NCBI GenBank assembly: GCA_041485385.1
Contig: JBGPJM010000001.1
Location: forward strand, 421 to 64,420
Length of the DNA stretch: 64,000 bases
Source of the DNA: Phycisphaerae bacterium
GTDB lineage: Bacteria > Planctomycetota > Phycisphaerae > Phycisphaerales > UBA1924
Direction: 5' to 3'
This document shows positions 10,364 through 53,455 of the stretch, one piece after another. Within the stretch, counting starts at the first letter, position 1. Each line of letters starts with the position of its first letter. Under the pieces are notes generated by a model. That model was not told where the DNA came from. It saw nothing but the letters and a program-made list of their open reading frames with translations, and made no database searches. Both the position numbers and the translations under genes were made by a program.

Positions 10364-10384
10364 CCCCCATCCCACATCCCCCAT
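10364..10384. repeat. (CCCMCAT)x3 heptamer repeat
   Basis: cccccat cccacat cccccat. Its reverse complement ATGKGGG is the same word as in the palindrome at 53426-53455. Confidence 0.6.
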
Positions 10385-10704
10385 CACTCCCGCGCCCGCC
10401 TCCCCCTCTTCTTCTCGAACTCCGGCACCGCCACCCCCCGCTCCACCAGCAGCACCCGCCACGCCTCCCCGGCCGGCCCGCCTCGCTCGCTGAACCGCCC
10501 GCTCTCGGCCCGCTGAACCAGCGACAACAGATCCGTCGCCGAGAAGACCCACGTCCGCCCGCCGTGCGTCGGCCCGCTCACCCTCGCGGCCTTGCGGATC
10601 GTGTCGAACGTCTTGGCCGACAGCCCGCTGACATCCAGCAGCTCCTGCTTCGTCCAGCCCTCGGGCGCCTCGACAGGCGGCGATATATTCTGTCCACGTC
10701 CCAT
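10384..10704 (-). CDS. Hypothetical small protein (possible HTH DNA-binding)
   Basis: 106 aa from the internal ATG of ORF 10384..12090. MGRGQNISPPVEAPEGWTKQELLDVSGLSAKTFDTIRKAARVSGPTHGGRTWVFSATDLLSLVQRAESG has normal composition. The rest of the listed 568-aa ORF is read-through of the repeat element. Confidence 0.5.
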   Translation of the reverse strand: MGRGQNISPPVEAPEGWTKQELLDVSGLSAKTFDTIRKAARVSGPTHGGRTWVFSATDLLSLVQRAESGRFSERGGPAGEAWRVLLVERGVAVPEFEKKRGRRARE

Positions 10705-10761
10705 GCTCTGATCGTTGCACCCTTGCGGGCGTGGAAAGCGGAAAACAGGACGCCGGGACAC

Positions 10762-10840
10762 GGGGAAGGGGAGACTGGGGGACTGGGGGGACGGGGAGAC
10801 GGGGCGACGGGGAGATGGGGAGACGGGGAGATGGGGAGAC
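10762..10840. repeat. (GGGGAGAY)n G-tract array, 11 runs of four or more G in 79 nt
   Basis: ggggaaggggagactgggggactggggggacggggagacggggcgacggggagatggggagacggggagatggggagac, read directly from the sequence. Lies between divergent starts at 10704 (minus) and 10936 (plus). Confidence 0.85.
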
Positions 10841-10935
10841 GAAGGATGACGGTTCCCCCTTTCCGCATACGCCGCCCGCGCCCGCACAGCCCGGTACACT
10901 CCCCGCCCAACGCCTTCACCTCCCGGAGTCCCCGC

Positions 10936-11496
10936 ATGACCTGCCCGACCTTCCGTCTCCGCGCCCTCATCGCCGCCGTCTGCCTCGCCTCCATCGCCGG
11001 CGCCGTGATCGCGTTCCAGGCCGCGCAGCCCGAGCCGGCCTCGCCCGGTTCCAGGCAACCCTCCCCGCCCCCGCAGCCCGGCCAGCCAGGTGAACGCGGT
11101 CGCCCGGGCGGCCCCGGCGCCGAGGGCCGCCCGATCAGTATCGAGGGCGCGATGAAGACCATGAACGGCTCGCTCAGGCGCCTCAGGGGCCAGATCGCCG
11201 ACCCCGCCAAGAAAGTCGAGAACCTCCGCCTCATCAACGACATGCAACGCGGCTGCGTCATGGCCAAGGGCCAGCCCCTCCCGCCCGACCGCGTCGAAGA
11301 CGCCAAGGACGACGCGGCCAAGGCCAAGCTCAACGAAACCTTCCGCAGGGACCTCATGGCCGCGATGCGCACGCTCCTGGACATCGAACAGGACCTCATG
11401 GACGGCAAGGCCGACTCCGCCAAAGCACGCTTGGAGGAAGTCATCAAAGCCCGCGACGCCGCGCACAAAGAGTTCGGCGTCAAGGAAGACGAGTGA
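10936..11496 (+). CDS. Cytochrome b562-like four-helix-bundle protein with N-terminal signal/anchor
   Basis: Internal ATG of ORF 10315..11496. MTCPTFRLRALIAAVCLASIAGAVIAF, a Pro/Gly linker, then IEGAMKTMNGSLRRLRGQI ... EVIKARDAAHKEFG. This mirrors b562 (LEDNMETLNDNLKVIEK ... TTRNAYHQKYR), including candidate Met and His haem ligands. Confidence 0.6.
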   Translation: MTCPTFRLRALIAAVCLASIAGAVIAFQAAQPEPASPGSRQPSPPPQPGQPGERGRPGGPGAEGRPISIEGAMKTMNGSLRRLRGQIADPAKKVENLRLINDMQRGCVMAKGQPLPPDRVEDAKDDAAKAKLNETFRRDLMAAMRTLLDIEQDLMDGKADSAKARLEEVIKARDAAHKEFGVKEDE

Positions 11497-11557
11497 TCGG
11501 CAAGCGGTACGGCGCGCCCCCTCCTCTCCGTGCCCCCAGCGCCTCTGCGAGAGCCTC

Positions 11558-12728
11558 TGAGGTTCCGTGAGGTTCGGCGAGGTTCGGCGAGGTTTGGCGA
11601 GGTTTGGCGAGGTTTGGCATGGGTTTTTTGAGGTTCGATGGGGGTTTTCTGAGGTTCGGCGAGGTTTTTTGAGGTTTCGAGAGGTTTTTTGAGATTCATT
11701 TTCGGGGTGTTTTTGATGTAAGTTGTTGTAGCGTGGGGAGTTGTGTTGGTTCGAGGTGGCTTGGTTGGGTCGGGGGCTGAAAATGCATCGCTCGAAAAGA
11801 AGTGAGCAGTAAGCAGTGAGCAGTGAGCAGTGAGCAGAAGAGGGGAGAAGAGGGGCGTGGGGGAGAGGGGACGAGAAGGGTCGAGAGATGTTGAGAAGGG
11901 TCGAGAGTTTTTGAGAAAAGCAGAGAAGGGCGGGGAAGGGTCGAGAGAAGCAGGGCAGGGTTTTTGTGTAAGTGCTTGTGATATTGAGAGTTGTGATTTT
12001 TGAAGTGGTGTTTTTCGCGGCGAGGGGATTGAGTTTCTCGGGGTTTTTGGGTGATTTTTGAGGGTCGGCGCGGCGGCGTGATCGCTGCAAGTTGCTTTCT
12101 GCAAAGCACGTGTGTTGATGCCTGGCTGATTGGACGCGGTTCTGAAATTCGTGTGCTCCTGGGATGGGGAGGCGTTGAGGCGTGGGGGCGTGGAGGCGTT
12201 CAGACGTGGGGCGGGCGCGGAGCGTGCGCGCGACGTCTCTCTACCCATGGGCCGTCGGTCCTGTTTGCGCGCGCAGAATGGGAATCGGCGGGGGTCGAAT
12301 CGCGTAAGTGCTTGTGGCGCAAGGAGAAGAAAATTTTGAGGTTTGCGCTTTTGCGCGCGCCGGGCGCGCCTGTTCTGCGCGCGCAAACTGGCTCCACCGT
12401 TCAGGGGGGCTGGTTGCCGCGGTGGCCGCGGGTGCCCAGATGGCCGCGGGTGGGCGGGGTGGGGTGGTGTGATGCGCACAGCCTGCGACTTCCGTCGTGG
12501 AGATGACGACTCGCTGCGCATCGTGGCTCGTGGGGTGCGTCCGCGGTTGATTGGGGACCGGATGCGGGGCGGTGGCCGCGCTCCTCTCGAGAGGCAGAGG
12601 GCATAGCCCCGACCTCGACGCCCGCGCGATCGCGGACGCACCGGACGAGCCCCCGCGGACCGCGTCCCCGCGCTCCGCCCGCCCGCTGCGCGAGGCGGCT
12701 CGTCGGGTACGGTCCCCGCGAAATTCAG
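11558..12728 (+). repeat. Copy A of a ~1.15-kb non-coding G+T-skewed element
   Basis: Aligns end to end with 52257-53398 in the same orientation, with many substitutions and small indels. Contains (GAGGTTYGGC)x6 at 11559-11618, (GTGAGCA)x5 at 11802-11836, phased T-tracts and a conserved core at 12263-12388. No believable protein in any frame. Confidence 0.85.
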
Positions 12729-13051
12729 GGTGGGACCGGTGAACGGGGCGAGCCGTTCGGTTGGACCGCGAAGTGCGGCAAGAACAATTTCAGGAATCGC
12801 GCAAGGAAGCTGCCCGAGCACAGCACAGGCTTCCAGGACGCCGGCCCGCGCTCCTGCCGGCCCGCCGACGAGCTCCTCGCCACGAAGCACGCGGGCGCGG
12901 GCCGGACCAAGGGCGCGGCCTTCGGCCCGGCTCGCGAACCGGGCGAGCCCCTCAAGGCCGAGTGCCTGCGTCGGCGGGCGGCGGAAGCACCGCGACCTTT
13001 CGCCGCCGCCCCGCACTCCGGGCAGGGCTCTCCGCGCCGATGCCGCGGCGG

Positions 13052-15694
13052 TCAGGGGCAACCGGCGAAGAACGCCGGAAGGAAGTCGAAGAAGTCCTGA
13101 GCCGTGGTCATGCCGTCGGCGTTGAAGTCGGCGCGGCCGGCGAAGAACGCGTTCAGGAAGTCGAAGAAGTCCTGTGAGTTGGCGGAGCCGTCGTTGTTGA
13201 AGTCGGCGGGGCAGGGGCTGTTGGAGCAAGCGCCGGGCGTCGCGGCGGGCGTGAGGCTGAACGACCTGGGACTGGGAGGGAAGAGCGAGTCGGAGGGGAT
13301 CTGCAGGGTGTCAAGTCCCTGAGAGTCCTTCAGTCCGACGGTGACATCGGACGTGTCGCCTGGGAAACCGCTGAACGTGCTGCGGTCGTCGAGTTCGGCG
13401 TAGCGGAGTTCGATGCGGTTCGAGCTTTCGAAGAGCACGACCTGGAAGGTGTCCGTACCGTCAAACCAGCCGCCGGGCATGTGTTGCCATGAGGCGATGA
13501 ATCGGCGGGAGCCGGGGATGCCGTCGGTGCGGACATACATGGCACCGCCGATCGGATACAGATCATCCCAGAGGGCGAAGATGGCGTTGTTGGGCGGGGT
13601 GGAGTAGAACCGATTGGTGTTCTGGGCCACGCCCAGCGGCTGGTTGCCGAAGGCGAGATAGCCGTTGTCGCCGATGCCGATGCTGGTGTAGCGGCGGCCG
13701 TAGAACTCAAACTCAAAGCCGATGTCGACGGATCGACCGGTGTTGTTGGCCAGCACGATCGGAGTGCCATCGGCGGAAATATCTTCAAAGGGTGCATCGG
13801 CCTCGGCTTGTGTGTAGGCGGCGCTGGGGCAGACGGTGTTCTCGCCGGAGAATCGGCCGAACTGGGCGGCGCAGTCGGCGGCGGTGGTCAGCGAGCAGCC
13901 GTTCTGCGTGCAGCAGGCGCCCAGTGGCTGCGAATCGATCGTCAGGATGTAGCGTGTGGGTAGCGCGCAGGGCCAGTCCCAGAAGAGACCCGAGTTGTTG
14001 CCGGAATCCGGGAAGACGAGCACGCCGAAACGCCCGGCGGGCAGTGTGAATGAAAGGCTGGCAGGGCCGGCGCAGCGAGTGAGTTCCAAATCGTTGGCGA
14101 TCACCTCGGCCGGGCAGGTGTCGGACATCAGCAGGACGCGCACGGGGAACTCGGCGGTCACGTTGATCGTGACGAAGGCGGGGTGGTCGAGCGTGCAACG
14201 GTACCAGTCGAAGTCGCGTCTGCCGCCGTTGGCATAACTGGAACCCCAGACAGTGATGTTGGGCGAGGGCAGGTCCTGGAAGAGCGGCGGGTCGCCTGGG
14301 GCGTAACCCCTGCAGCCGTAGTTGTTCTGCTGGCCGCATAATTCGGGCTCGATGAATGCGCCGGCGGGCTGGGTGAGGCAGGGGAGGATCGGCGCCGAGG
14401 TGCTGAGGGTAAGGGTGCCGGTGCCGGAGTCGCCGCCATCGCCGGCGATGCGAACAAGGTAACTGCGCCCGGCGATCGCGTTGAACCGGGCATCCATGCG
14501 GCCTCCGCAACTGATCCCGTTGATGAAGCGAAGGACCGATCGGGAGCAGACGAGTTCCGTGTCGGTGGCCTGGTCGATCACCGACATGACGCCGTCGTAG
14601 AGATACCCCCCGCCAGTTGCGCAGGAGACGAGAGTGACGAGGTTGTCGACCGACGCCTGATAGACGAACCAAATGTCATTGGCAGTGAACCCGCCGCCGC
14701 CGTCGCAGGTGGACGAGCCGTCCGTGAGCGCCCCGCGGGTGGTGAACGGGTTGGCACCTTCAACCAGCGGGGCGGCGTTGGCTCGCAGATCGTTGGGCGG
14801 CGGCTGGACGATCGTGACGGACAACTCGCCCATGTAGCCGTTTGGAAGGGGAACGCCTTCTGAATGGCCCGCCGTGCTCGACGCTACGCGGAGAAGCACG
14901 ACTTGGCCAATGGTGACGGGCAAGGAAAGCGAAGCCTGCGATGCGCACGCGAACGGGGATGAGCCGCACGAGTCGAACGCGGCAGTCGTCCATCCGCCGC
15001 TCACTATCGCAACACCGGACGCGGCGGCCGTGTACCTGAACCAAACATCCCTCACGCCGCCAAAGGTATCCGAACCGCAGGGAGCACTGATCTCGGTGGC
15101 CGCGGCGAGGCTGCTGAAGGCAAGGGGTGTGTCGGCGAAGAGGTCGATCGCATCGACGCACACGTCATTAGCGGGCGGAGGCAGCATCGTAATCGTGAAG
15201 GTGCCGATGACGGAAGATGGACCGACCGGGCCGTTCGTAGGTCCGCCGATGCGGATGAGGATGCTCTGGCCTTCGGAAACGTTGACGTACACCTGCGAGA
15301 TGACACAGAATGGGTTGGAGGAACCATCGTCGCCGACGGGATCGCACGCCAGTTCCGTGCCGCCGCAGGATGACTGGACAGTCAGTGTTGCAGCGTTGTA
15401 CCAATAGTCAGGCTCGAATGGGGTGCTGCAGGCGACGATCCAGGCCGCTCCCGCCGAGGGGGCGGTGAAACTGAACCAGACGTCTCCGCGAACGTCGCCG
15501 CCGGGGCTGTTGGCGGCAACGCACGGCCAGGGATCGGCGCTGCGCGTGGCGGTGGTGGTGTCGAACGCCTCCTCGGTGTCGATCACGACGGGAATCGCAC
15601 CCGAACACTCGTCGTTGGCGGGTTGCGCCCGCACCGACGTCTCGATGAATAGCAGGGACGCACACCCAACAAGGACGGAGCAACAACATCGCAT
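13052..15694 (-). CDS. Large secreted protein with PxNDxC-initiated modules and a C-terminal double dockerin-like (GC-type) tag
   Basis: ORF 13052..15742. Probable start is M17 (MRCCCSVLVGCASLLFIETSVRAQ, signal peptide). At least three modules begin PANDEC / PPANDVC / PPPNDLR. A NIDO-like IGDNGYLAFGN segment follows. The C-terminus is [53 protein letters not shown]. Confidence 0.85.
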   Translation of the reverse strand: MRCCCSVLVGCASLLFIETSVRAQPANDECSGAIPVVIDTEEAFDTTTATRSADPWPCVAANSPGGDVRGDVWFSFTAPSAGAAWIVACSTPFEPDYWYNAATLTVQSSCGGTELACDPVGDDGSSNPFCVISQVYVNVSEGQSILIRIGGPTNGPVGPSSVIGTFTITMLPPPANDVCVDAIDLFADTPLAFSSLAAATEISAPCGSDTFGGVRDVWFRYTAAASGVAIVSGGWTTAAFDSCGSSPFACASQASLSLPVTIGQVVLLRVASSTAGHSEGVPLPNGYMGELSVTIVQPPPNDLRANAAPLVEGANPFTTRGALTDGSSTCDGGGGFTANDIWFVYQASVDNLVTLVSCATGGGYLYDGVMSVIDQATDTELVCSRSVLRFINGISCGGRMDARFNAIAGRSYLVRIAGDGGDSGTGTLTLSTSAPILPCLTQPAGAFIEPELCGQQNNYGCRGYAPGDPPLFQDLPSPNITVWGSSYANGGRRDFDWYRCTLDHPAFVTINVTAEFPVRVLLMSDTCPAEVIANDLELTRCAGPASLSFTLPAGRFGVLVFPDSGNNSGLFWDWPCALPTRYILTIDSQPLGACCTQNGCSLTTAADCAAQFGRFSGENTVCPSAAYTQAEADAPFEDISADGTPIVLANNTGRSVDIGFEFEFYGRRYTSIGIGDNGYLAFGNQPLGVAQNTNRFYSTPPNNAIFALWDDLYPIGGAMYVRTDGIPGSRRFIASWQHMPGGWFDGTDTFQVVLFESSNRIELRYAELDDRSTFSGFPGDTSDVTVGLKDSQGLDTLQIPSDSLFPPSPRSFSLTPAATPGACSNSPCPADFNNDGSANSQDFFDFLNAFFAGRADFNADGMTTAQDFFDFLPAFFAGCP

Positions 15695-15698
15695 CGTT

Positions 15699-15760
15699 TG
15701 ACTTGGCATTCTGTTCACCTCACGAAAAAGCCGACATGACACGCGTGTCCCCGCCCGGCT
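15699..15760 (-). promoter_or_regulatory. Conserved 62-nt leader/promoter box, copy 1
   Basis: Almost identical to 17117-17179. Gene-sense sequence is AGCCGGGCGGGGACACGCGTGTCATGTCGGCTTTTTCGTGAGGTGAACAGAATGCCAAGTCAA. Contains the perfect 12-bp palindrome GACACGCGTGTC (15738-15749). Confidence 0.6.
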
Positions 15761-15819: not shown

Positions 15820-17028
15820 CTACGGGCAGGGAGCGAAGAACGCACCGAGGAAGTCGAAGAAATCCTGGGAGTTGATGATCGAGTCGTGGTTGAAGTCGGC
15901 GCTCGGGTTACCGGCAAAGAAGGCGGCGAGGAAGTCGAAGAAGTCGCCTGAGTTCGCGATGCCGTCTTGGTTGAAATCCGCCGCGCAGAAGAGCGGCCGC
16001 GTCCAGAGCAGGGCTTCGGTGTAACCCGTCAGCGAGTTGGTGCCGAAGCCCGCGACATAGAGGTTCGTGCCATCGCTGGAAAGCCCCGATGCTCGACTCT
16101 CCGTGAACCCGGCGGGGAGGAAAACGTGGAGATCGACCCAGGAGTCCGCCGTGCCGCTCCACAGGCTGGCGTGGGCCGCGCCGCCCACAAATGCACTCCC
16201 CGCCTGCTGCCCGCCGCTGATGGCAATGGCGTAGGAACTGGTCAAGCCCGCCGGGCCGAGACTGACCCACGAGTCCGCCGTGCCGCTCCACAGGCTGGCG
16301 ACGGTCACGCTGCCGCCGTCCCAGGCATACCCCACCTGCTGCCCGCCGCTGCCGCCAAAGACTTCGGACCACACCGCGCCCGCCGGGTTGAGATCGACCC
16401 ACGAGTCCGCCGTCCCGCTCCACAGGCTGGCGTGGTAATCGGCAAAGTCGCCCACAGCGGCATACCCCGCCTGCCGCCCGCCGCTGGCGACCCGGGCCAT
16501 GGACTCGTATTCGCCCGCCGGGTGGAGATCGACCCACGAGGCCGCCGTCCCGCTCCACAGGCTGGCGCGGTACTGGTCATCCACAGAGACATACCCCACC
16601 TGCTGCCCGTCGCCGACGCCAAGGGCTTCGGACTCCGGCGATCCCGCCGGGTTGAGATCGACCCACGAGGCCGCCGTGCCGCTCCACAGGCTAGCGCGGA
16701 CCGCGCCGTCCACAATGGCAACCCCCACCTGCTGCCCGCCGCTGGCCGCGGTGGCAAAGGACAACGCCGAGCCGGCCGGGTTGAGATCGACCCACGAGGC
16801 CGCCGTGCCGCTCCACAGGCTGGCGCGGTACACGCCGCCCACGGTGGCACCTCCCGCCTGCTGACCGCCGCTGGCGGCACGGGCATCGCAGTGCGTCGAG
16901 CCCGCCGGGTTAAGTCTGGCCACGGTCCACTGGGCGTGGGCCGTTGAGGCGAGCATGACACTCGCGAGCGCAGGCAGCGCTGCCATGATGGTGTTTCGGA
17001 TGGTATTTCGAATGTATGTCACGTTCAT
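15820..17028 (-). CDS. Secreted HAF-like repeat protein with C-terminal double dockerin-like tag
   Basis: ORF 15820..17064. I prefer the ATG at 17028 (MNVTYIRNTIRNTIMAALPALASVMLASTAHA), preceded by GGAGGAG. About eight repeats of ...GGQQ(V/A)G...ASLWSGTA(A/D)SWVDLNPAG.... C-terminus is [55 protein letters not shown]. Confidence 0.85.
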   Translation of the reverse strand: MNVTYIRNTIRNTIMAALPALASVMLASTAHAQWTVARLNPAGSTHCDARAASGGQQAGGATVGGVYRASLWSGTAASWVDLNPAGSALSFATAASGGQQVGVAIVDGAVRASLWSGTAASWVDLNPAGSPESEALGVGDGQQVGYVSVDDQYRASLWSGTAASWVDLHPAGEYESMARVASGGRQAGYAAVGDFADYHASLWSGTADSWVDLNPAGAVWSEVFGGSGGQQVGYAWDGGSVTVASLWSGTADSWVSLGPAGLTSSYAIAISGGQQAGSAFVGGAAHASLWSGTADSWVDLHVFLPAGFTESRASGLSSDGTNLYVAGFGTNSLTGYTEALLWTRPLFCAADFNQDGIANSGDFFDFLAAFFAGNPSADFNHDSIINSQDFFDFLGAFFAPCP

Positions 17029-17460: not shown

Positions 17461-20400
17461 TCACGGCATCGGCAACTTGGACCGCCACTGGGCGGCCTTG
17501 AGGGCGTGTCCCTGCTCCGGGTCGGACCGGTCCCAAGCTTCGTAGAACGCGGCGAGGCGCTCGATGGAGGCGTTGAGCTGCGGGCTGGCGGGCGGGGCAT
17601 CGCCGGCGTCGGCTGGGGGCGCCAACCGTTCGCACGCTTCGACGAGCAGGGCCTCGGCCTGGGGCATCTCGGCTCGGGCCGTGCGATACTCGGCGAGGTT
17701 GAACAGATCGCGGGTGATATCCGGATGGCTGCGCGGCTGGAGGCGTCGGCGCATGCCCAGAGCTTCCTCGAATTGGGCCAGGGCCAGCTCGTCCTTCCCG
17801 AGAGCCCGGAGACAACCCGCCACACCCGCGAGGCTCTGGGCCGTGTCCACCTGATCTCCGGGCGCGATTCGCCGGCGCATCGCCAGGGCCTGCTCGTATC
17901 GGCCCAGGGCCTCCGCCGGTTCTCTCATCGATTCGTAGCAGGCGCCGATGTGTTCGAGAGTCGATGCGGCGTCGGCGCTGTCGGGGCTGGCGAGGTGCTG
18001 GAAGATCTCGAGGGCATGCTCGTGTGCCTCGATCGCCTTCGACGGGTTCTTAAGTTTCGTCAGACAGTCGGCCATCCGGTTGGTCATCTGGGCCGTGTGG
18101 ATGCGGTAGGGCTCGCCGAGACGTTGGGCGATGTCGCGTGCCTCGGTGAATCGGTCGAGCGCGTCCTGGAAGTGTTCGAGGGACAGCAGGCACAAGGCGG
18201 TGTTCATCAGGTCGTAGGAGATGTTGATGTGGTCGCCGTCGTAGTAGCCGCGCCAGAACGTCAGCGCCTGGTCGTACTTGTCGAACCCATCCTGGAAGCT
18301 GCCCATGCCCTGGAAGCAGTAGCCCATGCAGTCGAATGTCGCGGCTTCCCGCTCGCTCCTGCCGGGCCAGGCGCGGTGGCACAACTCCAGGGCGGTCCGG
18401 TACTTGGCCATCGCGTCGTCCCGCCGGTTGAACGCCTCGAGGGTTCTGCCAAGTTCGAAGAGGCTTGTGATCGCGGCGCGAGGGTCCTGCTCGACCAGGC
18501 GTGCCCGCATCGCCGCGCCGGCCTCGAGGCTCTCGATCGCCTTGTCTTCGCGACCCAGGCGCCTGTAGACGGCGCCGAGCTCTGTCAAGCCTTCTGCAAC
18601 CCATGGATCATCTCCGGGGCGTGCGCTCTTGCGCCTGGCCAACTCCTGCTGCATCATGAGCAGCGCCTCGTCGGGGCTGCCCAGTGCGATGAGGCTTCTG
18701 GACTCCTGGTGCAGCATCAACGTGGTGTTCAGGCTGGGACCGGGACAGAAGAGCTGTTGCATGCAGCGGGCGGCGTGCGACGTTGCCAGGGACTCGTCGT
18801 ATTGACGATTGCTCCACAGGCAGATCGCTTGATTGGAGAGCGCTGCCGCGAGGTTCAGGTTTCCACCCGGGAACAGACGATGGAACATGGAAACGGCCAC
18901 TTCGTACTCGACCAGCGCGTCGGCTGTTCGCGTGAGATCTTTGAGGCAGTCGGCCACGACCCTATGGCCCTGCGCGACAGCCGCGTGATCCCCGGGGTGG
19001 AGGCGTTGCGCCATCGCGAGAGCCTCGCTGTAGAGCGGAAGCGCCTGGTTGGGCGGGACGCACCAGCCGATGGCTTCCAGACTCTTCACGATGCGATCAT
19101 CGTCGCCTGTGCATTCGCGCCGTCGGATCTCGAGCGAGCGCCGCAGCAGCGGGAGCGCCTCACCGGACATCTCGCGGGAACGGAGCACGAGGCCCAGCTC
19201 GTACATCACGCCGGCGGCCTCCAAACTTCCGGGACCATCGCCGGCGCTGGCGAGCTCCAGAGCCCGGCGGAGCATCCGGTCGGACCTCTCCCACTCGGCG
19301 ATGCCCCGGTACACGCTGCCGATCATGAACCGGAGCCGCCATTCTTCCTCCGGCGCCGCGGAGAGTTCCCCGGCATCAATGCGGGCGGCGGCGGCGTCCA
19401 TCATCTCCTGCAACATCCTGGTGTCGCGCCCGAGAGCCACCGACGGGCCGACGCCGGCAAACACCTCCCCCATGAACTGCCCGACCCCTTCGGCGCGGTG
19501 ACGCGCGGCCGCCTCCTTGACGAGCGCCGCCTCTTTGGCGTCGTTCTTGTATTTCGCCTGCACGAGGCCGTACGTCGCCAGCCCCAGCCCCAGCACCAGC
19601 GCGCCAAGCACCGCGGAACCCGCGAGGAAGACGCCGAGGTTCCGCCGCACCAGCTTTCCCAGCCGGTACACGGTGCTGGGAGGGCCGGCCAGCACCGGCT
19701 CGTCGCACAGGTACCGCTGCACCTCCATCGCCAGACCGTTGGCCGTCTCGTAGCGGCGGGTGCGGTCCTTCTCCAGGCACTTCATCACGATCCAGTCCAG
19801 CTCGCCGCGCACCAGCCTGCCGATCCTTGAAGGCTCCGTCCGGCGATTCGTCGCCACCCGCGCGAGCGCATCTCCCAACGTGCTCAGGCGCGTGCTGGGA
19901 GTAGGTGGCTCCTCCTCCCGGATCATCCGCTGCATCTCCGCCCACGCCGCGGAACGGAGCCGCTTGGGGTCCAGCGGCGTCGTCCCGGTGAGCAGTTCGT
20001 ACAACAGCACTCCCAGGCTGAAGATGTCGCTGCGCGTGTCGATGTCCACGCCGGTCATCTCCGCCTGCTCCGGGCTCATGTACTCGGGCGTGCCGATGAG
20101 CTGGCGGTGCTCGGTGAAGAGCGTCTTCTCCGTGAGGCGTGCGGAGGTCGCCTTGGCGATCCCGAAGTCGATCACCTTCGGGATCGGCTTGCCGTCGGAC
20201 ACGGTTACCAGCACGTTGCCCGGCTTGATGTCCCGGTGGATGACCCCTTTCTGGTGCGAGTGCTGCACGGCGTTGCACACCTGCGCGAACAGCTCCAGGC
20301 GCTCGCGGGTGCTGAGGCTGTTCGTATCGCAATACTCCGTCACCGGCTCTCCGCGCACCAGCTCCATCACGAAATAGGGGCGCCCCGTAGGCGTCGCTCC

Positions 20401-20877
20401 GGCATCAAGAACCCTGGCAATATTCGGGTGGTCCATGAGGGCCAGGGCCTGGCGCTCCTGCTCGAAGCGGGCGACGACCTGCCCGGTGTCCATCCCCAGC
20501 TTGATGATCTTCAGCGCCACCCGCCGCCGTACGGGCTGCTCCTGTTCCGCCAGGAAAACGGCTCCGAAGCCGCCCTCCCCGATGAGCTGGAGCAGCTTGT
20601 AGGGTCCGATCCGGGCGCCGGGCCCCTCTCTGAGCGGCCCCATGGCGGTCGACGTCGACAGCTCGGATCCTTCACCAGCCGGCAGCGCGTTCCCCGCCGT
20701 CGGCGAGGCCATGAAGTCTCCCGCCCTTGCCCCGGCCGCCAGCAACCCCAGCACGCGCTGCAGGAGTTCGGCGTCGTTCGCGCACTCGGCGCGCACAAAC
20801 GCCTCTCTCGCCCCCGGCGGTTGCTCCATCGCCTCGCCGAAGATCCGCTCCATTTGCCGCAGCTTGGTCCCGGCCAT
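17461..20877 (-). CDS. Ser/Thr protein kinase with transmembrane helix and long TPR domain
   Basis: 1138 aa. Kinase motifs [34 protein letters not shown] and SPEQ. One TM helix ([23 protein letters not shown]), then about 700 aa of TPR-like repeats. Confidence 0.92.
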
Positions 20878-20887
20878 GGCCGCCCTT

Positions 20888-21502
20888 CTAGGACTCCCCC
20901 GCGTCGCGCTCGGCGCCCTCCTGGTCTCCCAACTCCTGGAACAGCAACGCCCGCGCGAACGCCCACCGCCGCTTCACCGTCGCCGGCGACAACCCAAGCG
21001 CCGCCGCGGTCGTTTCCACGTCCAGGCCGGCATAGAACCGCAGCCGTACCACCCATGCCAGCTCGGTGTCCTGCATCTCCAGGCGACGCACCGCCTCGTC
21101 GAGGCTCAGGATCGCGTCGGAATCCAGCTCCGCGGCCAGGTCCACCACACACAACGGCACGCGACGCGCCGGGGATCCATGACTGTCGCCGCCCCGTTTC
21201 ATCCGCCCGCGCGCTCGCGCATGCTCGATCAGGATTCGGCGCATCGCCTCGGCGGCGGCCGTGTAAAAATGAGCCCTGCCCGACCACTGGGGCTCGCCGC
21301 CGCCGACCAGGCGCAGATAGGCCTCGTGGACCAGCGCGGTGGCCTGCAGCGTGTGGCCCGCACGCTCCTGCGCCATCCGCTCCTGGGCAATGGCACGGAG
21401 CTGACCATACACGAGCGGGAGAAGGTCGGCTGCGGCCTGGACATCACCCCCCGCGACCCGTTGCAGCAGCCGCGTTGCCGGTGTAGTTGAGTTCCCGGGC
21501 AT
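20888..21502 (-). CDS. ECF-type RNA polymerase sigma factor (PF07638 / ECF43-like)
   Basis: 204 aa. [41 protein letters not shown]...[20 protein letters not shown] is the hallmark N-terminal region of this family. Lies 10 nt upstream of the kinase gene. Confidence 0.9.
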
Positions 21503-48886: not shown

Positions 48887-51565
48887 TCATGGTGTAACGC
48901 GGCCCCGCCATTCGGTCGCGGAGGTGGTGTCGCCCCGGGCCTCGAAGTGCTTGACGATGCGCTCGGCGGCCCGCCGGCGGCGGTCGTCCGGGGTCTGCGG
49001 GCTGGCCTTCATGATGGTGTAGCCGTCGATGAGCAGGGGCTGGGCGTCGTCGAAGCGCCCCTGCATCGAGAGGCACGCCCCCAGCAGGTTCATCGACGAG
49101 CCGATGAGCCAGTGACCGGCCGGGAGCTTCTCGCGCCGGATGTCGAGGGACTCGCGGAGGAGCGGCTCGGCCTCGGCGGCGCGGCCGAGCTCGAGCAGGT
49201 CCCACCCGAGGTTGGCCTGGCTGCGGGCGATGTCCGGATGATCCGGCTCCAGCAGCGCGCGGTTCATCTCGAGCGCCTCGCGGAAGAGCGGCTCGGCCTT
49301 CGCGGCGTCGCCGCGCTCCAGGTAAAGACCGGCGAGGCTGTTGGCGGCCTTGGCGACGTCCGGGTGCGGCGTCCCCAGCAGCGTCCGCGTCATCTCCAGC
49401 GACTGAAGCAAGAGCGGCTCGGCCTGGCGGAACTTGCCCTGGGCGACCAGGAGAAGACCGAGGTTGTTGAGCGCGCCGGCAAGGTCGGCGGTGGGCGCCT
49501 GCTTGAGATCGCGGATGATGCGCAGCGACTCGGTGTACAGCATCTGCGCCTCGTCGAGGTTGTCCCGCTCGACGAGGATGAGCGCGAGGTTGTTGATCGC
49601 CGCGGCGACGAATCCATCGGTCGGCGGGCGCGTGCGCCGGCTGAGCTCGACATCCTCCCGCGCCAGCGCCTCGGCCTGGTCGAGTTTGCCCTCGAGCCGG
49701 TAGACGGTAGAGAGACTCTCGAGGGTGGCGGACACGTCGGCCGGGTCCTCTTCGGGAAGGGACCGGCGGAGGATGAGGGCCGCGGTGAGGTGCTTCTCGG
49801 CCTCGGGGTAGCGTCCGAGGGACTGATAGGTACGGCCGATGGTCGTGCGGACGTCGGCCTCGATCTGGGGCTGGTTGCGCAGGGAGCCGGCCTCGACCTT
49901 GGCCGCGGCGGCGTCGAGGGCGTCGCCGATGGTGGTGTCCTTGCCGCGCGTGTTCGCCGGGTCGGCCGCGCCGAGGACCTCCTGCATGAAATCGTTGGCG
50001 GCGCGGGCGCGGGCGGTCTGCAACGTGGCGGCCTGCGTCTGGAGGTCGGCGATGTGGTGCTGGGTCGCCTCGGCCTCGCGCGCCCGGTTGGCCTGGCCCA
50101 GCGCGATGGTGGTGCCGATCAGCCCCAGCACGAGGGCCGCGGTCACCAGCCCCGCGCCCACGAGCAGGGCCCGGTTGCGGCGCGCGAACTTCGTCAGCCG
50201 GTACGAGACACTCGGCGGGCCGGCGAGGACCGGCTCGTGCCGAAGGTGGCGCCGGACATCTTCGGCCAGGTCGAGGGCGGAGGCGTAGCGGCGCGTCCGG
50301 TCCTTCTCCATGGCCTTCATGGTGATCCAGTCCAGGTCGCCGCGCAGCGAGCGCGCGAGCGTGGACGGGCTGGCGCCGCGCTGGCGGGCGATCAGGTCCG
50401 GGGATGCGCCCGGGGCGGGCTGGGGCTGCGCCGGGGGCCCGGGGGGGGCGGGGGACGCGGGGGGCGGAGAGGAGAGGCCGCTGAGGCGGGTGCTGGGGCG
50501 CGGCGGCTCGGAGTCGCGGAGGATGCGCTGGATCTCGGCGAAGCCGGCGAAGCGGAAGGTGCGGGGATCAAAGGGGGGAGAACCGGTGAGCAGCTCATAA
50601 AGGAGCACTCCCAGGGAGTAGACGTCGGAGCGCGTGTCGATGTCCTGGCCGGAGAGACCGGCCTGCTCGGGGGACATGTAGGCGGGGGTGCCGATGATCT
50701 GGCCGTGCTCGGTCAGGCCGGTCTCTTCGAGGGCGCGGCTGCTGACGGCCTTGGCGACGCCGAAGTCGATGACCTTGGGAACGGCTCGCCCCCACGCCCC
50801 CCCCACTCCCGACGCCCCTGATCCGCCGTCGCGCTCGACGGCCTCGATCAGGACGTTCCCCGGCTTGAGGTCGCGATGGATAACGCCCTTCTGGTGCGCG
50901 TGCTGCACGGCCTCGCAGACCTGGATAAACAGCTCGAGGCGCTGGCGGACGCTCAGACGCCGCTGGTCGCAGTACAGGGTGATGGGCGGCCCGTGGACGT
51001 ACTCCATCGCGAAATACGGGCGCCCTCGGGGTGTGGCGCCGGCGTCGAAGACGCGCGCGACCGAGGGGTGCTCCATCACGGCCAGCGCCTGGCGCTCGGC
51101 GCGGAATCGCTCGATGACGTGCCGCGTGTCCATCCCGAGCTTGATGACTTTGAGAGCGACCTTGCGCCGGATGGGCTCGGACTGCTCGGCAAGGTAGACG
51201 GTGCCCATGCCGCCGGCGCCGATGGTGGAGAGGATGCGGTAGGGGCCGATCATCGTGCCGGGAGGGTCGTCGGTGAGGATGTCGACGCTGGAGTCCGCGC
51301 CCCCTCCCTGGCCCCGGCCACCCCCACCTCCCCGATCCGCGCCCCGATCCCCCCCACTCCTATCAACCACCGCCGGGACCTGCATGAACTGCTGGTCGGC
51401 GTCGTGCTCGCGCAGGAGCGACTCGATCTCGCGACGCAGGGCGCTGTCGGGGCCACACAGGGCGTCGAGGCAGGCTGGCCGCTCGGCGGGCGCGAGGGCG
51501 GCCGCCGCGGCGAAGATCCGTTCGGTGCGACCGTGTTCGGGCATGGAGGGAGACTGGGTGGGCAT
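48887..51565 (-). CDS. Ser/Thr protein kinase with TM helix and TPR domain (paralogue 2)
   Basis: Real start is M225 of ORF 48887..52237 (MPTQSPSMPEHGRTERIF...). IGAGGMGTVYLA, VALKVI, HRDLKPGNVLI, DFGVA and SPEQ motifs. TM helix ALLVGAGLVTAALVLGLIGTTIAL, then TPR repeats. The ATG overlaps the sigma stop by 1 nt. Confidence 0.92.
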   Translation of the reverse strand: MPTQSPSMPEHGRTERIFAAAAALAPAERPACLDALCGPDSALRREIESLLREHDADQQFMQVPAVVDRSGGDRGADRGGGGGRGQGGGADSSVDILTDDPPGTMIGPYRILSTIGAGGMGTVYLAEQSEPIRRKVALKVIKLGMDTRHVIERFRAERQALAVMEHPSVARVFDAGATPRGRPYFAMEYVHGPPITLYCDQRRLSVRQRLELFIQVCEAVQHAHQKGVIHRDLKPGNVLIEAVERDGGSGASGVGGAWGRAVPKVIDFGVAKAVSSRALEETGLTEHGQIIGTPAYMSPEQAGLSGQDIDTRSDVYSLGVLLYELLTGSPPFDPRTFRFAGFAEIQRILRDSEPPRPSTRLSGLSSPPPASPAPPGPPAQPQPAPGASPDLIARQRGASPSTLARSLRGDLDWITMKAMEKDRTRRYASALDLAEDVRRHLRHEPVLAGPPSVSYRLTKFARRNRALLVGAGLVTAALVLGLIGTTIALGQANRAREAEATQHHIADLQTQAATLQTARARAANDFMQEVLGAADPANTRGKDTTIGDALDAAAAKVEAGSLRNQPQIEADVRTTIGRTYQSLGRYPEAEKHLTAALILRRSLPEEDPADVSATLESLSTVYRLEGKLDQAEALAREDVELSRRTRPPTDGFVAAAINNLALILVERDNLDEAQMLYTESLRIIRDLKQAPTADLAGALNNLGLLLVAQGKFRQAEPLLLQSLEMTRTLLGTPHPDVAKAANSLAGLYLERGDAAKAEPLFREALEMNRALLEPDHPDIARSQANLGWDLLELGRAAEAEPLLRESLDIRREKLPAGHWLIGSSMNLLGACLSMQGRFDDAQPLLIDGYTIMKASPQTPDDRRRRAAERIVKHFEARGDTTSATEWRGRVTP

Positions 51566-52167
51566 CAGGAATCTTCGGGGTCGCCGTCGCCCTGGAGCTT
51601 GCGGACCTCGCGCCTGAGCCAGGCGCGGGCGTAGGTCCACTCGGTCTTTACAGTAGTAAGGGAGAGTCCCAGCGCGGCGGCGGTCTGTTCGATGCTGAGG
51701 CCGGCGAAGTAGCGGAGGTGGACGATCTCGGCCTTGCGCGGGTCGCGGGCCTCGAGGAGCTTGAGGGCCTCGTCGAGGGAGATGAGGTCCTCGGGGGTCT
51801 GGGTATCGCCGACGGCCTCCACATCCCAATCGACGCGCTGCCGCCCGCCGCCGTGCTTGAGGCGGGCGCGGCGACGGGCGCGCTCGACGAGGATGCGTCG
51901 CATGGCCAGGGCGGCGGCGCCGTAGAAGTGGCCGCGGGAGCGCCACTGGGCGTTGGGATCGGCGACGAGGCGGAGGTAGGCCTCGTGGACGAGCGCGGTG
52001 GGCTGGAGGGTGTGGCCGGAGGATTCGCGCGCGAACTGGTTGCGGGCGAGGCGGCGGAGCTCGGCGTAGACCAAGGGCAGGAGCTGCTCGGGCGCAGTGG
52101 GATCGCCGCCGGCGGCGCTGACCAGCAATCGAGTGACGTCCTGGTGTGCGGTTGAGGAGGTCGGCAT
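51565..52167 (-). CDS. ECF-type sigma factor (PF07638 / ECF43-like), paralogue 2
   Basis: The last 200 aa of ORF 51565..53433 starting [68 protein letters not shown]. The upstream 422 codons are read-through of the repeat element. Confidence 0.9.
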   Translation of the reverse strand: MPTSSTAHQDVTRLLVSAAGGDPTAPEQLLPLVYAELRRLARNQFARESSGHTLQPTALVHEAYLRLVADPNAQWRSRGHFYGAAALAMRRILVERARRRARLKHGGGRQRVDWDVEAVGDTQTPEDLISLDEALKLLEARDPRKAEIVHLRYFAGLSIEQTAAALGLSLTTVKTEWTYARAWLRREVRKLQGDGDPEDS

Positions 52168-52216
52168 GGTGTGCTGGGGGCTGGCGCGACGGGGGCGACG
52201 GGAGACTGATGACCAA

Positions 52217-52248
52217 TGTCCGCTGTCCATTGTCCACTGTCCACTGTC
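52217..52248. repeat. (TGTCCRY)n heptamer array
   Basis: tgtccgc tgtccat tgtccac tgtccac tgtc, 50-80 nt upstream of the sigma start codon. Confidence 0.75.
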
Positions 52249-52256
52249 GGGGCTCG

Positions 52257-53398
52257 GAGGTTTCGTGAGGTTCGGCGAGGTTATTTGAGGTTCGGGGTGG
52301 GTTTTTTGAGGTTCGATGGGGGTTTTTTGAGGTTCGGCGAGGTTTTTTGAGGTTTTTGGGGGTTTTTTGAGGTTCGTTTTGGGGGTGTTTTTGATGTAAG
52401 TTGTTGTGGCGTAGTGAGTTATGTCTGTTAGCGGTTGCTTGGTTCGGGGTGGGACCTGAAATGCATCTCTCGAAGAGAAGTAAGCAGTGAGCAGAGAGCA
52501 GTAAGCAGTGAGCAGAAGAGAAGACGGGCGTGGGGGGACAGGGGACGAGAAGGGTCGAGAGATTTCGAGAAAGGTCGAGAGTTTTTGAGAAAAGCAGAGA
52601 AGGGCGGGGAAGGGTCGAGAAAAGCAGGGCAAGTTTTTCATGTAAGTGCTTGTGTTATCGATAGTTGTGACCTTTGATGGGGTGTTTTTCGCGAAGAGGG
52701 GGGGGGTCGGTTTCTCGGGGTTTTTGGGTGGTTTTTGAGGGTCGGCGCGGCGGCGGCGTCGCTGCAAGTGGCTTTCTGCAAAGCACTTGCGTTGAGGCTC
52801 GGCTGATGGGGTGCGAGTCTGAAATTCGGGTGCTCCTGGGCAGGGTTTCGGACCGGACGTTCGCCCCCCCTCCCGTCGGGCGCAGCGTGCGCGCGACGTC
52901 CCTCTACCTATGGGCCATCGGCCCTGTTTGCGCGCGCAGAATGGGAAATCGGCGGGGGTCGAATCGCGTAAGTGCTTGTGGCGCAAGGAGAAGAAAATTG
53001 TGAGGTTTGCGCTTTTGCGCGCGCCGGGCGCGCCTGTTCTGCGCGCGCAAGCGCGCTCCACCGTTCGGGGGAGTTGGTTGCCGCGGTGGCCGCGGGTGCC
53101 CAGATCGCCGCGGTGCGTGTGACGATGCGCTGCCCGCCCCCCGATCGTTCGCCCACCCCTCGCTCGCGCGTCGGGTTCGTCAGGCGTCCGCGGTGATCGG
53201 GGACCGGATGCGGGGCGGCGGCCGCACTCCTCTCGATCGGCGGGAGACGTATCCCGAATCTCGGCGCCCGAGCGATCGCGGGCGCACCTGACGAGCCACT
53301 CAGGCGGCGTCCCCCGTCCCCGCGTCCCTCCGTCGGCGCACGCTCCCCCCCGCCCGCTGCGCGAGGCGGCTCGTTGGAACGATCCCCGCGAGTTCAGC
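52257..53398 (+). repeat. Copy B of the ~1.15-kb non-coding G+T-skewed element
   Basis: Collinear with 11558-12728: same tandem words, the same GTAAGTGCTTGTG boxes, and the same core at 52926-53052. Confidence 0.85.
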
Positions 53399-53425
53399 GC
53401 AGGAAGCGGTCTCCCCGTCTCCCCG

Positions 53426-53455
53426 TCCCACATCCGACATATGTGGGATGTGGGA
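53426..53455. promoter_or_regulatory. 30-bp near-perfect palindrome
   Basis: tcccacatccgacat|atgtgggatgtggga has 15-nt arms with no spacer and one mismatch (53436/53445). The centre is ACATATGT. Confidence 0.55.

Follow-up and report, generated by a model that had tools for sequence, protein, structure and literature searches.

A bipartite, non-coding repeat element in a Phycisphaerae genome, tentatively read as a long plus-strand RNA

The 64,000-nucleotide stretch of a Phycisphaerae bacterium genome that was analysed here (contig JBGPJM010000001.1; 'the window' throughout) carries two diverged copies, A and B, of an element of about 1.2 kb that is best read as a selectively maintained, bipartite, non-coding unit. 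Its left ~0.5 kb is depleted in C and filled with short repeated words, and its right ~0.65 kb is GC-rich and holds three long inverted repeats with conserved stems and hypervariable tips. The reading favoured here, to which we give a probability of roughly 0.4, is that the element may specify an undescribed long non-coding RNA (ncRNA) of the plus strand, in which an unfolded repeat platform would be joined to a folded 3' domain. The element and its modules are as follows.

11555-12750, plus strand: copy A, whole element (alignment, blastn and pair profile)
52253-53420, plus strand: copy B, whole element (alignment, blastn and pair profile)
A 11559-11697, B 52257-52376, plus strand: array 1, GAGGTTYGGC decamers and the 20-mer GAGGTTTTTTGAGGTTCGGC, about six units, with phased T-tracts
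A 11718-11730, B 52396-52408, plus strand: 13-mer word m1, GTAAGTTGTTGTR
A 11801-11837, B 52475-52515, plus strand: heptamer array (AGTGAGC), about five units
A 11842-11870, B 52526-52554, plus strand: conserved G-quadruplex-type motif, after the heptamer array
A 11863-11961, B about 52537-52635, plus strand: array 2, GAGAAGGGTC/GAGAGATGTT decamers at 10-nt spacing, eight units
A 11968-11980, B 52642-52654, plus strand: 13-mer word m2, GTAAGTGCTTGTG
A 12262-12390, B 52925-53054, plus strand: core palindrome, 129 nt, ~98% identical between A and B
A 12392-12595, B 53056-53241, plus strand: long imperfect hairpin, ~200 nt, with ~50-nt arms
A 12628-12723, B 53274-53393, plus strand: terminal hairpin at the right border

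The two copies lie ~40 kb apart and are colinear and co-oriented. That they are end-to-end homologues had been noticed in a preliminary description of this DNA, and blastn, MAFFT and a pair profile agree on it: blastn aligned 11579-12721 of copy A with 52257-53391 of copy B as a same-strand match of 1175 columns at 80.5% identity (1053 bits, E=0), whilst the MAFFT alignment contains 920 identities, 186 substitutions (93 transitions and 93 transversions) and 66 indel columns, with ~83% identity over aligned bases. A profile hidden Markov model built from both copies gave envelopes of 11556-12749 (A) and 52256-53419 (B); the element itself stands, but against the coordinates first described its left border moves outwards by a few bases and its right border by ~20. 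The left border is abrupt, homology beginning at CTCTGAGG in A and CTCGGAGG in B; on the right, homology fades ~20 nt past the last hairpin, and the flanks of the two copies are unrelated (28-40% identity). No third full copy was found in the window by blastn or the pair profile; the sole partial copy there is a 60-nt fragment at 1239-1298, 82% identical to (GTGAGCA)n and the G-rich segment, which sits just upstream of a minus-strand gene ending at 1193. The two copies are unevenly conserved: identity is 0.9-1.0 in the stems, the arrays and the core but 0.38-0.62 in the hairpin tips, and such a pattern (~98% over the 129-nt core vs 38-58% in the tips) is not that of neutral decay.

The composition of the element sets it apart from its surroundings. 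The left half (A 11555-12060) has 52% GC, with 42% G, 29% T and 10-11% C, and the right half (12060-12750) has 70% GC. The low GC content and G+T skew that had drawn attention to the element turn out to be the strongest such outliers in the 64 kb: both copies are the only strongly low-GC, G+T-rich islands, with a GC minimum of 0.45-0.46 and G+T of up to 0.82-0.85 against a background GC of 0.62-0.76. All of the repeat words listed previously were recovered, namely (GAGGTTYGGC)n, (GTGAGCA)n (a heptamer present in ~5 copies per element), the decamer arrays, among them those of GGGTCGAGAG, and GTAAGTGCTTGTG twice per copy. GAG(G) recurs every 10 nt, ~14 times in array 1 and more in array 2.

The element encodes no protein. 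Long stop-free minus-strand frames do span both copies, and gene callers have called such open reading frames (ORFs) elsewhere, which might suggest a disordered, low-complexity minus-strand protein. Open frames are, however, expected from the C+A-rich composition of the minus strand, since stop codons need T. GC content by codon phase is flat in the element (0.61/0.60/0.64, compared with about 0.7/0.5/0.9 in the window's genes), and in a codon-usage log-odds score trained on 18 window genes (gene mean +0.585 bits/codon, minimum +0.24) all six frames of both copies scored between -0.34 and -0.53 bits/codon, with no 150-nt sub-window above +0.10. Substitutions between A and B fall evenly on the three codon phases (62/61/63), and no Pfam domains were found in the element's translation. 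The frames also shift: the frame of B's long ORF is that of A's 10384..12090 and not that of 10578..13229, as had been remarked earlier, and P0001, a spurious 'protein' from another assembly described below, matches A and B in frames -1, -2 and -3 along different segments, the matching frame of B containing stop codons. The earlier argument against a conserved protein is thus borne out, and the protein reading is effectively refuted. A small ORF after a perfect AAGGAG-N8-TTG at 12343 was likewise rejected (coding score -0.27, flat phase GC and an unconserved middle).

It is in the right half that structure is found. The core palindrome has 15-nt perfect arms, TTTGCGCGCGCAGAA and TTCTGCGCGCGCAAA, which flank a third 13-mer word, m3 (A 12304-12316; B 52968-52980), and the long hairpin is G-rich in both arms, copy A having 14 G·U vs 0 A·C mismatches there; its tip (12451-12536) is hypervariable, with 38-58% identity and indels. 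The terminal hairpin retains its stem, GACGAGCC/GGCTCGTY, whilst its loop differs in length by 25 nt between the copies. Neither the arms of the core palindrome nor the hairpin arm is present in the window outside the two elements. Compared with shuffled sequences, the right half has the better fold on both strands (z = -2.85 on plus, -3.21 on minus). When the real substitutions of B were placed on A, the plus-strand fold overlapped the original by 0.24, vs 0.08 for randomly placed substitutions, and the minimum free energy was -370 vs -352±8, with 0/100 random sets as good. Because the substitutions of B keep the fold of A, the inverted-repeat architecture is under constraint, although this alone does not identify the strand.

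Evidence for the strand comes from the stems, which are conserved with a G·U excess specific to the plus strand. When the structure was predicted for a single copy, fewer plus-strand pairs than expected were disrupted by the substitutions of the other (P=0.02 and 0.0035), and the minus strand has no such deficit of broken pairs (P=0.70 and 0.39). The arms of the three inverted repeats were then aligned by strand-symmetric DNA scoring, and transition-type stem mismatches proved to be G·U on the plus strand in ratios of 19:1 (A) and 13:2 (B), where composition predicts G·U fractions of 0.65 and 0.60 (P=0.002 for A and 0.026 for B, the two copies not being independent of each other). G-rich arms on both sides are typical of a helix read on one strand. 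The main reason for favouring a plus-strand RNA is that the long hairpin is G-rich in both of its arms, as no Watson-Crick palindrome could be. RNAalifold reported nine double changes among 195 pairs, in a structure derived from the same two sequences. The suggestion of a long structured RNA made in the preliminary description can thus be kept for the GC-rich right half, with its retained stems, variable tips and plus-strand G·U excess, but not for the left half.

Several observations weigh against an RNA. The fold is preserved on both strands (minus-strand overlap 0.30 vs 0.08 for random substitutions), in copy B the terminal hairpin folds no better than shuffles (z≈0), and substitutions that do fall in stems keep pairing in 35% of cases vs 30% at random, so that the signal comes mainly from substitutions avoiding stems; the basis for covariation is two DNA copies only. 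No sigma-70-like promoter was found in or beside either copy, and, as the left flanks are unrelated, any promoter would be either unrecognised or external; sigma-54 promoters in or near the element were not above chance. No U-tract terminator follows the element at its borders. Rfam 15 at gathering thresholds gave no matches anywhere in the window (models for OLE, GOLLD, ROOL, group I/II introns and riboswitches included), and a relaxed search over the element reached at best E 3.8 (18.7 bits vs a gathering score of 47.9); together with the phage and plasmid searches given below, this accords with the earlier view that the element belongs to no described RNA or repeat class. Finally, the left half has no structure beyond that of shuffles on either strand (z = +1.27 and -0.02), being G/U-rich and almost without C, and over its ~500 bp TT dinucleotides recur with a period of 10.5 bp in copy A, at 17.8x the mean power, and of 10.8 bp in copy B, at 10.5x, a property of the DNA helix and not of RNA.

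This periodicity lends some support to the proposal, made earlier and still unproven, of a DNA-level scaffold, in which the bent, low-GC left half would offer phased sites to a nucleoid-associated or regulatory protein and the right-hand palindromes would be binding or cruciform sites, the whole organising or insulating the chromosome. The exact repeat spacing of 10 or 20 nt, a local GC of 45-46% in a genome of roughly 70% GC, a left half that folds on neither strand, a right-half fold kept on both, the strength of the core palindrome on both strands (z = -4.3 on plus, -5.2 on minus) and a placement that is independent of gene orientation would all suit such a function. On the other hand, the long inverted repeats have 75-77% Watson-Crick complementarity with G in excess in both arms, and make good helices only when plus-strand G·U pairs are counted; long stems around variable spacers of 20-90 nt are unusual for protein sites or cruciforms; protein binding does not need an extreme single-strand G+T skew over 0.5 kb; and no candidate gene for a binding protein is linked to both copies. 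We regard a DNA scaffold as unlikely, if worth keeping in mind.

A role for the minus strand was also considered. Read in that direction, the left half would be a C-rich, G-poor and unstructured Rho-loading (rut) zone with YC every 10 nt, and the element would close one gene cluster as a Rho-dependent terminator or insulator (A) and precede another as a leader or attenuator (B). Only the minus strand has a fitting composition (42% C, 10% G, with an RNA that is nearly structureless at -32.7 kcal/mol over 506 nt), and both copies are co-directional, on that strand, with clusters of an extracytoplasmic function (ECF) sigma factor and a Ser/Thr kinase, A being downstream of 21502->13052 and B immediately upstream of 52167->48890. 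A rut site, however, needs composition and not 85-98% conservation with specific words, and 1.2 kb far exceeds the needs of a terminator; moreover, the stem mismatches favour the plus strand, and the minus strand lacks any signal linking substitution to structure. Such a role is very improbable.

Further copies of the element exist in other assemblies, where they were seen only in the form of spurious protein translations. P0001, found with a stop-free minus-frame translation and known as protein only, is a spurious 270-amino-acid (aa) 'protein' on a 15-kb NCBI contig that covers the left two-thirds of the element and is about as near to B as A is. When 1.84 billion representative proteins were searched exhaustively, P0002, from the soil read set SRR5262245 and again a translation only, was found as well, together with a doubtful low-complexity match, P0003. 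The segment PQKTPIEPQ.TH (A 11619-11654) is identical at 11/12 residues across the copies, P0001 and P0002 included, and P0002 also retains m1. P0001 and P0002 are translations of further element copies, which brings the total to at least four, and with only 2-3 relatives returned by the protein searches the family is real but rare. Back-translated, the C-terminus of P0001 (EAKRLELSTSSMPWKRSTKTELRPR) resembles the antisense strand of a tRNA-Ala(GGC) gene, which would thus lie, co-oriented, ~100 nt left of that element copy.

Exact look-ups of ten element ORFs and five neighbouring proteins returned a single contig, L001, a 1956-nt metagenome contig from JGI that corresponds to locus A of the same strain and is identical through the element up to 12273. 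From window position 12274 onward (1887-1956 of the contig) it departs from the window inside the TTTGCGCGCGC arm of the core palindrome, and its last 70 nt occur nowhere in the window, which means either that the assembly is chimeric at the palindrome or that the contig comes from a strain whose copy A lacks the right half. Distant-mode blastn against phage (50,697) and plasmid (72,556) records gave only one 43-nt low-complexity match, a scan of viral contigs with the left-half repeat patterns gave none, and scanning genome contigs with a two-word pattern gave only four chance matches in AT-rich genomes. A metagenome scan with the m2/m3 24-mer hit nine contigs, none of them homologous beyond the word; the concatenated six-frame translation had no match as a protein query, and nothing relevant was found in the literature on the words or on planctomycete intergenic repeats.

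These data bear on whether the element is a non-autonomous or decaying dispersed repeat without function, either a mosaic intergenic element or an oversized miniature inverted-repeat or palindrome-associated transposable element (MITE or PATE), moved by a recombinase encoded elsewhere and made patchy by gene conversion. As a description, 'dispersed repeat' holds: copies occur in other assemblies, borders are sharp and contexts unrelated, the make-up is modular (tandem sub-repeats and hairpins), L001 departs from locus A at 12274 within the GCGCGCGC palindrome, and one copy, to judge from back-translation, apparently follows at ~100 nt a tRNA gene, such genes being classical targets of integration. 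A signature of mobility is, however, missing. No inverted or direct match of >=8 nt exists between the ends or flanks of either copy (for target-site duplications (TSDs) the bound is also given as >=7 nt), which leaves both copies without terminal inverted repeats (TIRs) or TSDs, and no transposase or integrase is encoded in the 64 kb, in keeping with what had first been reported. The two copies of the window are ~17-20% diverged, with no recent activity seen, their sub-modules never separate within it, 2-3 relatives among 1.8 billion representative proteins are few, and the blocks conserved across assemblies argue for constraint. A functionless or mobile repeat is, in our estimation, quite unlikely.

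The 13-mer words provide a possible connection to phages. Each copy has three, GTAAGTGCTTGTG twice and the variant GTAAGTTGTTGTR (m1), the third position (m3) being in the right half, and all six occurrences of GTAAGTKSTTGTR in the window are inside the elements, where 0.04 would be expected. By searching with a 24-mer around m3, an unrelated 27-nt hairpin, GTAAGTNNTTGYGGYRYAANNNYTTAC, was reached in 45 viral-contig loci (L015-L061, for example 507-620 of L020), with ~1.5 estimated by chance, as well as in the metagenome contigs L007, L009/L014 and L010. The viral loci range in GC from 0.35 to 0.66. The hairpin is usually paired at a 53-nt period with a small GC hairpin in between, and in 9/49 instances a sigma-54-type TGGCAC-N5-TTGC box lies 25-52 nt upstream of it; in its alignment ~81% of cells pair, with frequent G·U pairs, and no Rfam family corresponds to it. 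It has the appearance of a phage RNA or regulatory motif that is not yet described. The element has the 5' strand of this hairpin, partly by construction, as the search pattern was taken from the element. With a covariance model built from the phage hairpins, scores were weak, 13.3 bits for m3 (E=0.57) and 11.3 bits for m1 of copy B (E=1.7), and the isolated words fold weakly (-0.3 to -4.7 kcal/mol), with no tandem partner in the element. Neither folding energy nor the covariance model thus supports m1 or m2 as stable hairpins of the phage type, and the link is to be taken as a lead and not as a finding.

The genes that adjoin the two copies are as follows.

10936-11496, plus strand: cytochrome-b562-like gene, left of copy A
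13052-15742, minus strand: gene for an 896-aa secreted protein, right of copy A
52167->51565, minus strand: ECF sigma factor, left of copy B
53739, plus strand: ABC transporter, right of copy B

These neighbours are convergent at A and divergent at B. Copy A lies 60-100 nt downstream of a co-oriented gene, as the copy on the contig of P0001 apparently does, and no terminator-like site was found between the upstream gene and copy A. The 40 kb between the copies carries genes for EPSP synthase, FtsH, SdhAB, an FabF-type ketoacyl synthase, GroES and Ogt, and the idea of a genomic island bounded by direct repeats was rejected because this content is housekeeping. No tRNA genes were found in the window. 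Two paralogous minus-strand operons of an ECF sigma factor (PF07638) and a Ser/Thr kinase with tetratricopeptide repeats occupy 17461-21502 and 48887-52167; copy A is at the tail of the gene string after the first, and the second has copy B immediately upstream of it. The pairing of PF07638 sigma factors with kinases and a GC content of ~70% suit a planctomycete. The left end of copy B is separated by 86 nt from the start codon of the ECF sigma gene (52167), and most of this gap is a heptamer array, (CCACTGT)x5 at 52213-52248, whose TGTCCAC units are DnaA-box-like; a 30-nt near-perfect palindrome at 53426-53455 (the CCCACATCCGACATATGTGGGATGTGGG region), with (ATGTGGG) repeats, follows just past the right end of this copy. 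A G-rich octamer microsatellite of the type (GGGGAGAC)n, which forms G-quadruplex-type motifs, is found in three intergenic regions (10755-10841, 1856-1885 and, in reverse orientation, 53409-53427); at 10772-10805 the window has eight differences from the otherwise identical contig L001, so that this array is variable within the population. Two other repeats were seen in coding sequence, a 75-nt repeat of two units at 13062-13212, which encodes the C-terminal DFFDFL..AFFAG repeats of the 896-aa secreted protein, and a 129/258-nt repeat of six or three units at 16129-16911, in a 414-aa ORF without a Pfam match.

Returning to the plus-strand RNA, we infer transcription, RNA ends and the binding of a partner as follows. 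A plus-strand transcript of ~1.2 kb would be made either from a gene of its own or by read-through from the neighbour upstream, of whose transcript it would be a module. Its 5' half, G/U-rich and almost C-free, could not fold and would keep its repeated short motifs on display (GAG(G) per 10 nt in two arrays, the heptamer array and the word GUAAGUKSUUGUR), so that it might act as a multivalent platform or sponge for a putative binding partner. The 3' half would form the three long hairpins, with stems conserved and tips free to vary, and the last of these would end exactly at the right border, like the 3' end of a transcript without a U-tract. A bolder version, which we consider doubtful, is that the element represents a new class of very large (~1.2 kb) bacterial ncRNA restricted to planctomycetes, with C-free unfolded 5' repeats and G·U-rich 3' hairpins, and that the word GUAAGUNNUUGUG, perhaps common to the phage hairpin, places it at the host-phage interface as a decoy or sponge for a hairpin-binding factor.

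To our knowledge, almost no regulatory RNAs or chromatin elements have been characterised in Planctomycetes. As an RNA, the element would rank with the largest classes of bacterial ncRNA and might serve as a multivalent sponge; as a DNA element, it might be a site that organises the nucleoid, whose biology is unusual in this phylum. That its halves follow opposite design rules, one unable to fold and the other folding through the G·U pairs of a single strand, would give a concrete entry point. There is also a consequence for annotation, which should mask the element, as gene callers render it as spurious 'hypothetical proteins' (P0001 and P0002, and ORFs of 883 and 622 aa here).

Amongst known systems, the closest in general form are the ornate ncRNAs OLE, GOLLD, ROOL, HEARO/omega-RNA and raiA, which like the element are long (0.3-0.8 kb), non-coding and lineage-restricted and combine conserved helices with variable tips; GOLLD and ROOL often adjoin tRNA genes, as one element copy apparently does. 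The element differs in being longer (1.2 kb), in that half of it consists of unstructured tandem repeats, and in matching none of their covariance models. The logic of its 5' half resembles that of the sponges CsrB/RsmY/RsmZ and CrcZ, in which one short motif is repeated along an RNA that titrates a protein, but its motif is GAGGUU or GAGAAGGGU and neither the GGA of CsrA/RsmA nor the A-rich motif of CrcZ. The multiple GGA motifs in hairpin loops that mark CsrB/Rsm RNAs are not found in the element, whose repeats are GAGGTT or GAGAAGGGTC in an unstructured left half; its motifs are outside hairpin loops, and it is ~3 times longer and has an added folded domain.

Other comparisons are with DNA repeats and origins. 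Like the BOX elements of pneumococcus, BIMEs/REPs, the NIMEs of Neisseria and the cyanobacterial STRR/LTRR repeats, the element is intergenic and non-coding, combines tandem and hairpin modules (its heptamers resembling STRR) and is located without regard to gene orientation. Those mosaic repeats, however, are 35-600 bp long, with tens to hundreds of copies and free modules, unlike two copies of 1.2 kb in 64 kb with a fixed order of modules; independent modules in many copies are not seen in the window, the 60-nt fragment at 1239-1298 being the sole exception. With MITEs and PATEs it shares non-coding dispersed copies and a hairpin at one end, but it has neither TIR, TSD nor left-end hairpin, no partner transposase in the 64-kb window, and copies that are old. 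Iteron origins and partition sites, in turn, resemble it in having ~6 direct 20-bp repeats and a lower-GC tract beside GC-rich palindromes. No rep or par gene is found among the neighbours of the element (a cytochrome-b562-like protein, a secreted protein, an ECF sigma factor and an ABC transporter) and no DnaA-box cluster within it, and, in contrast to such origins, its two copies stand 40 kb apart on a housekeeping chromosome.

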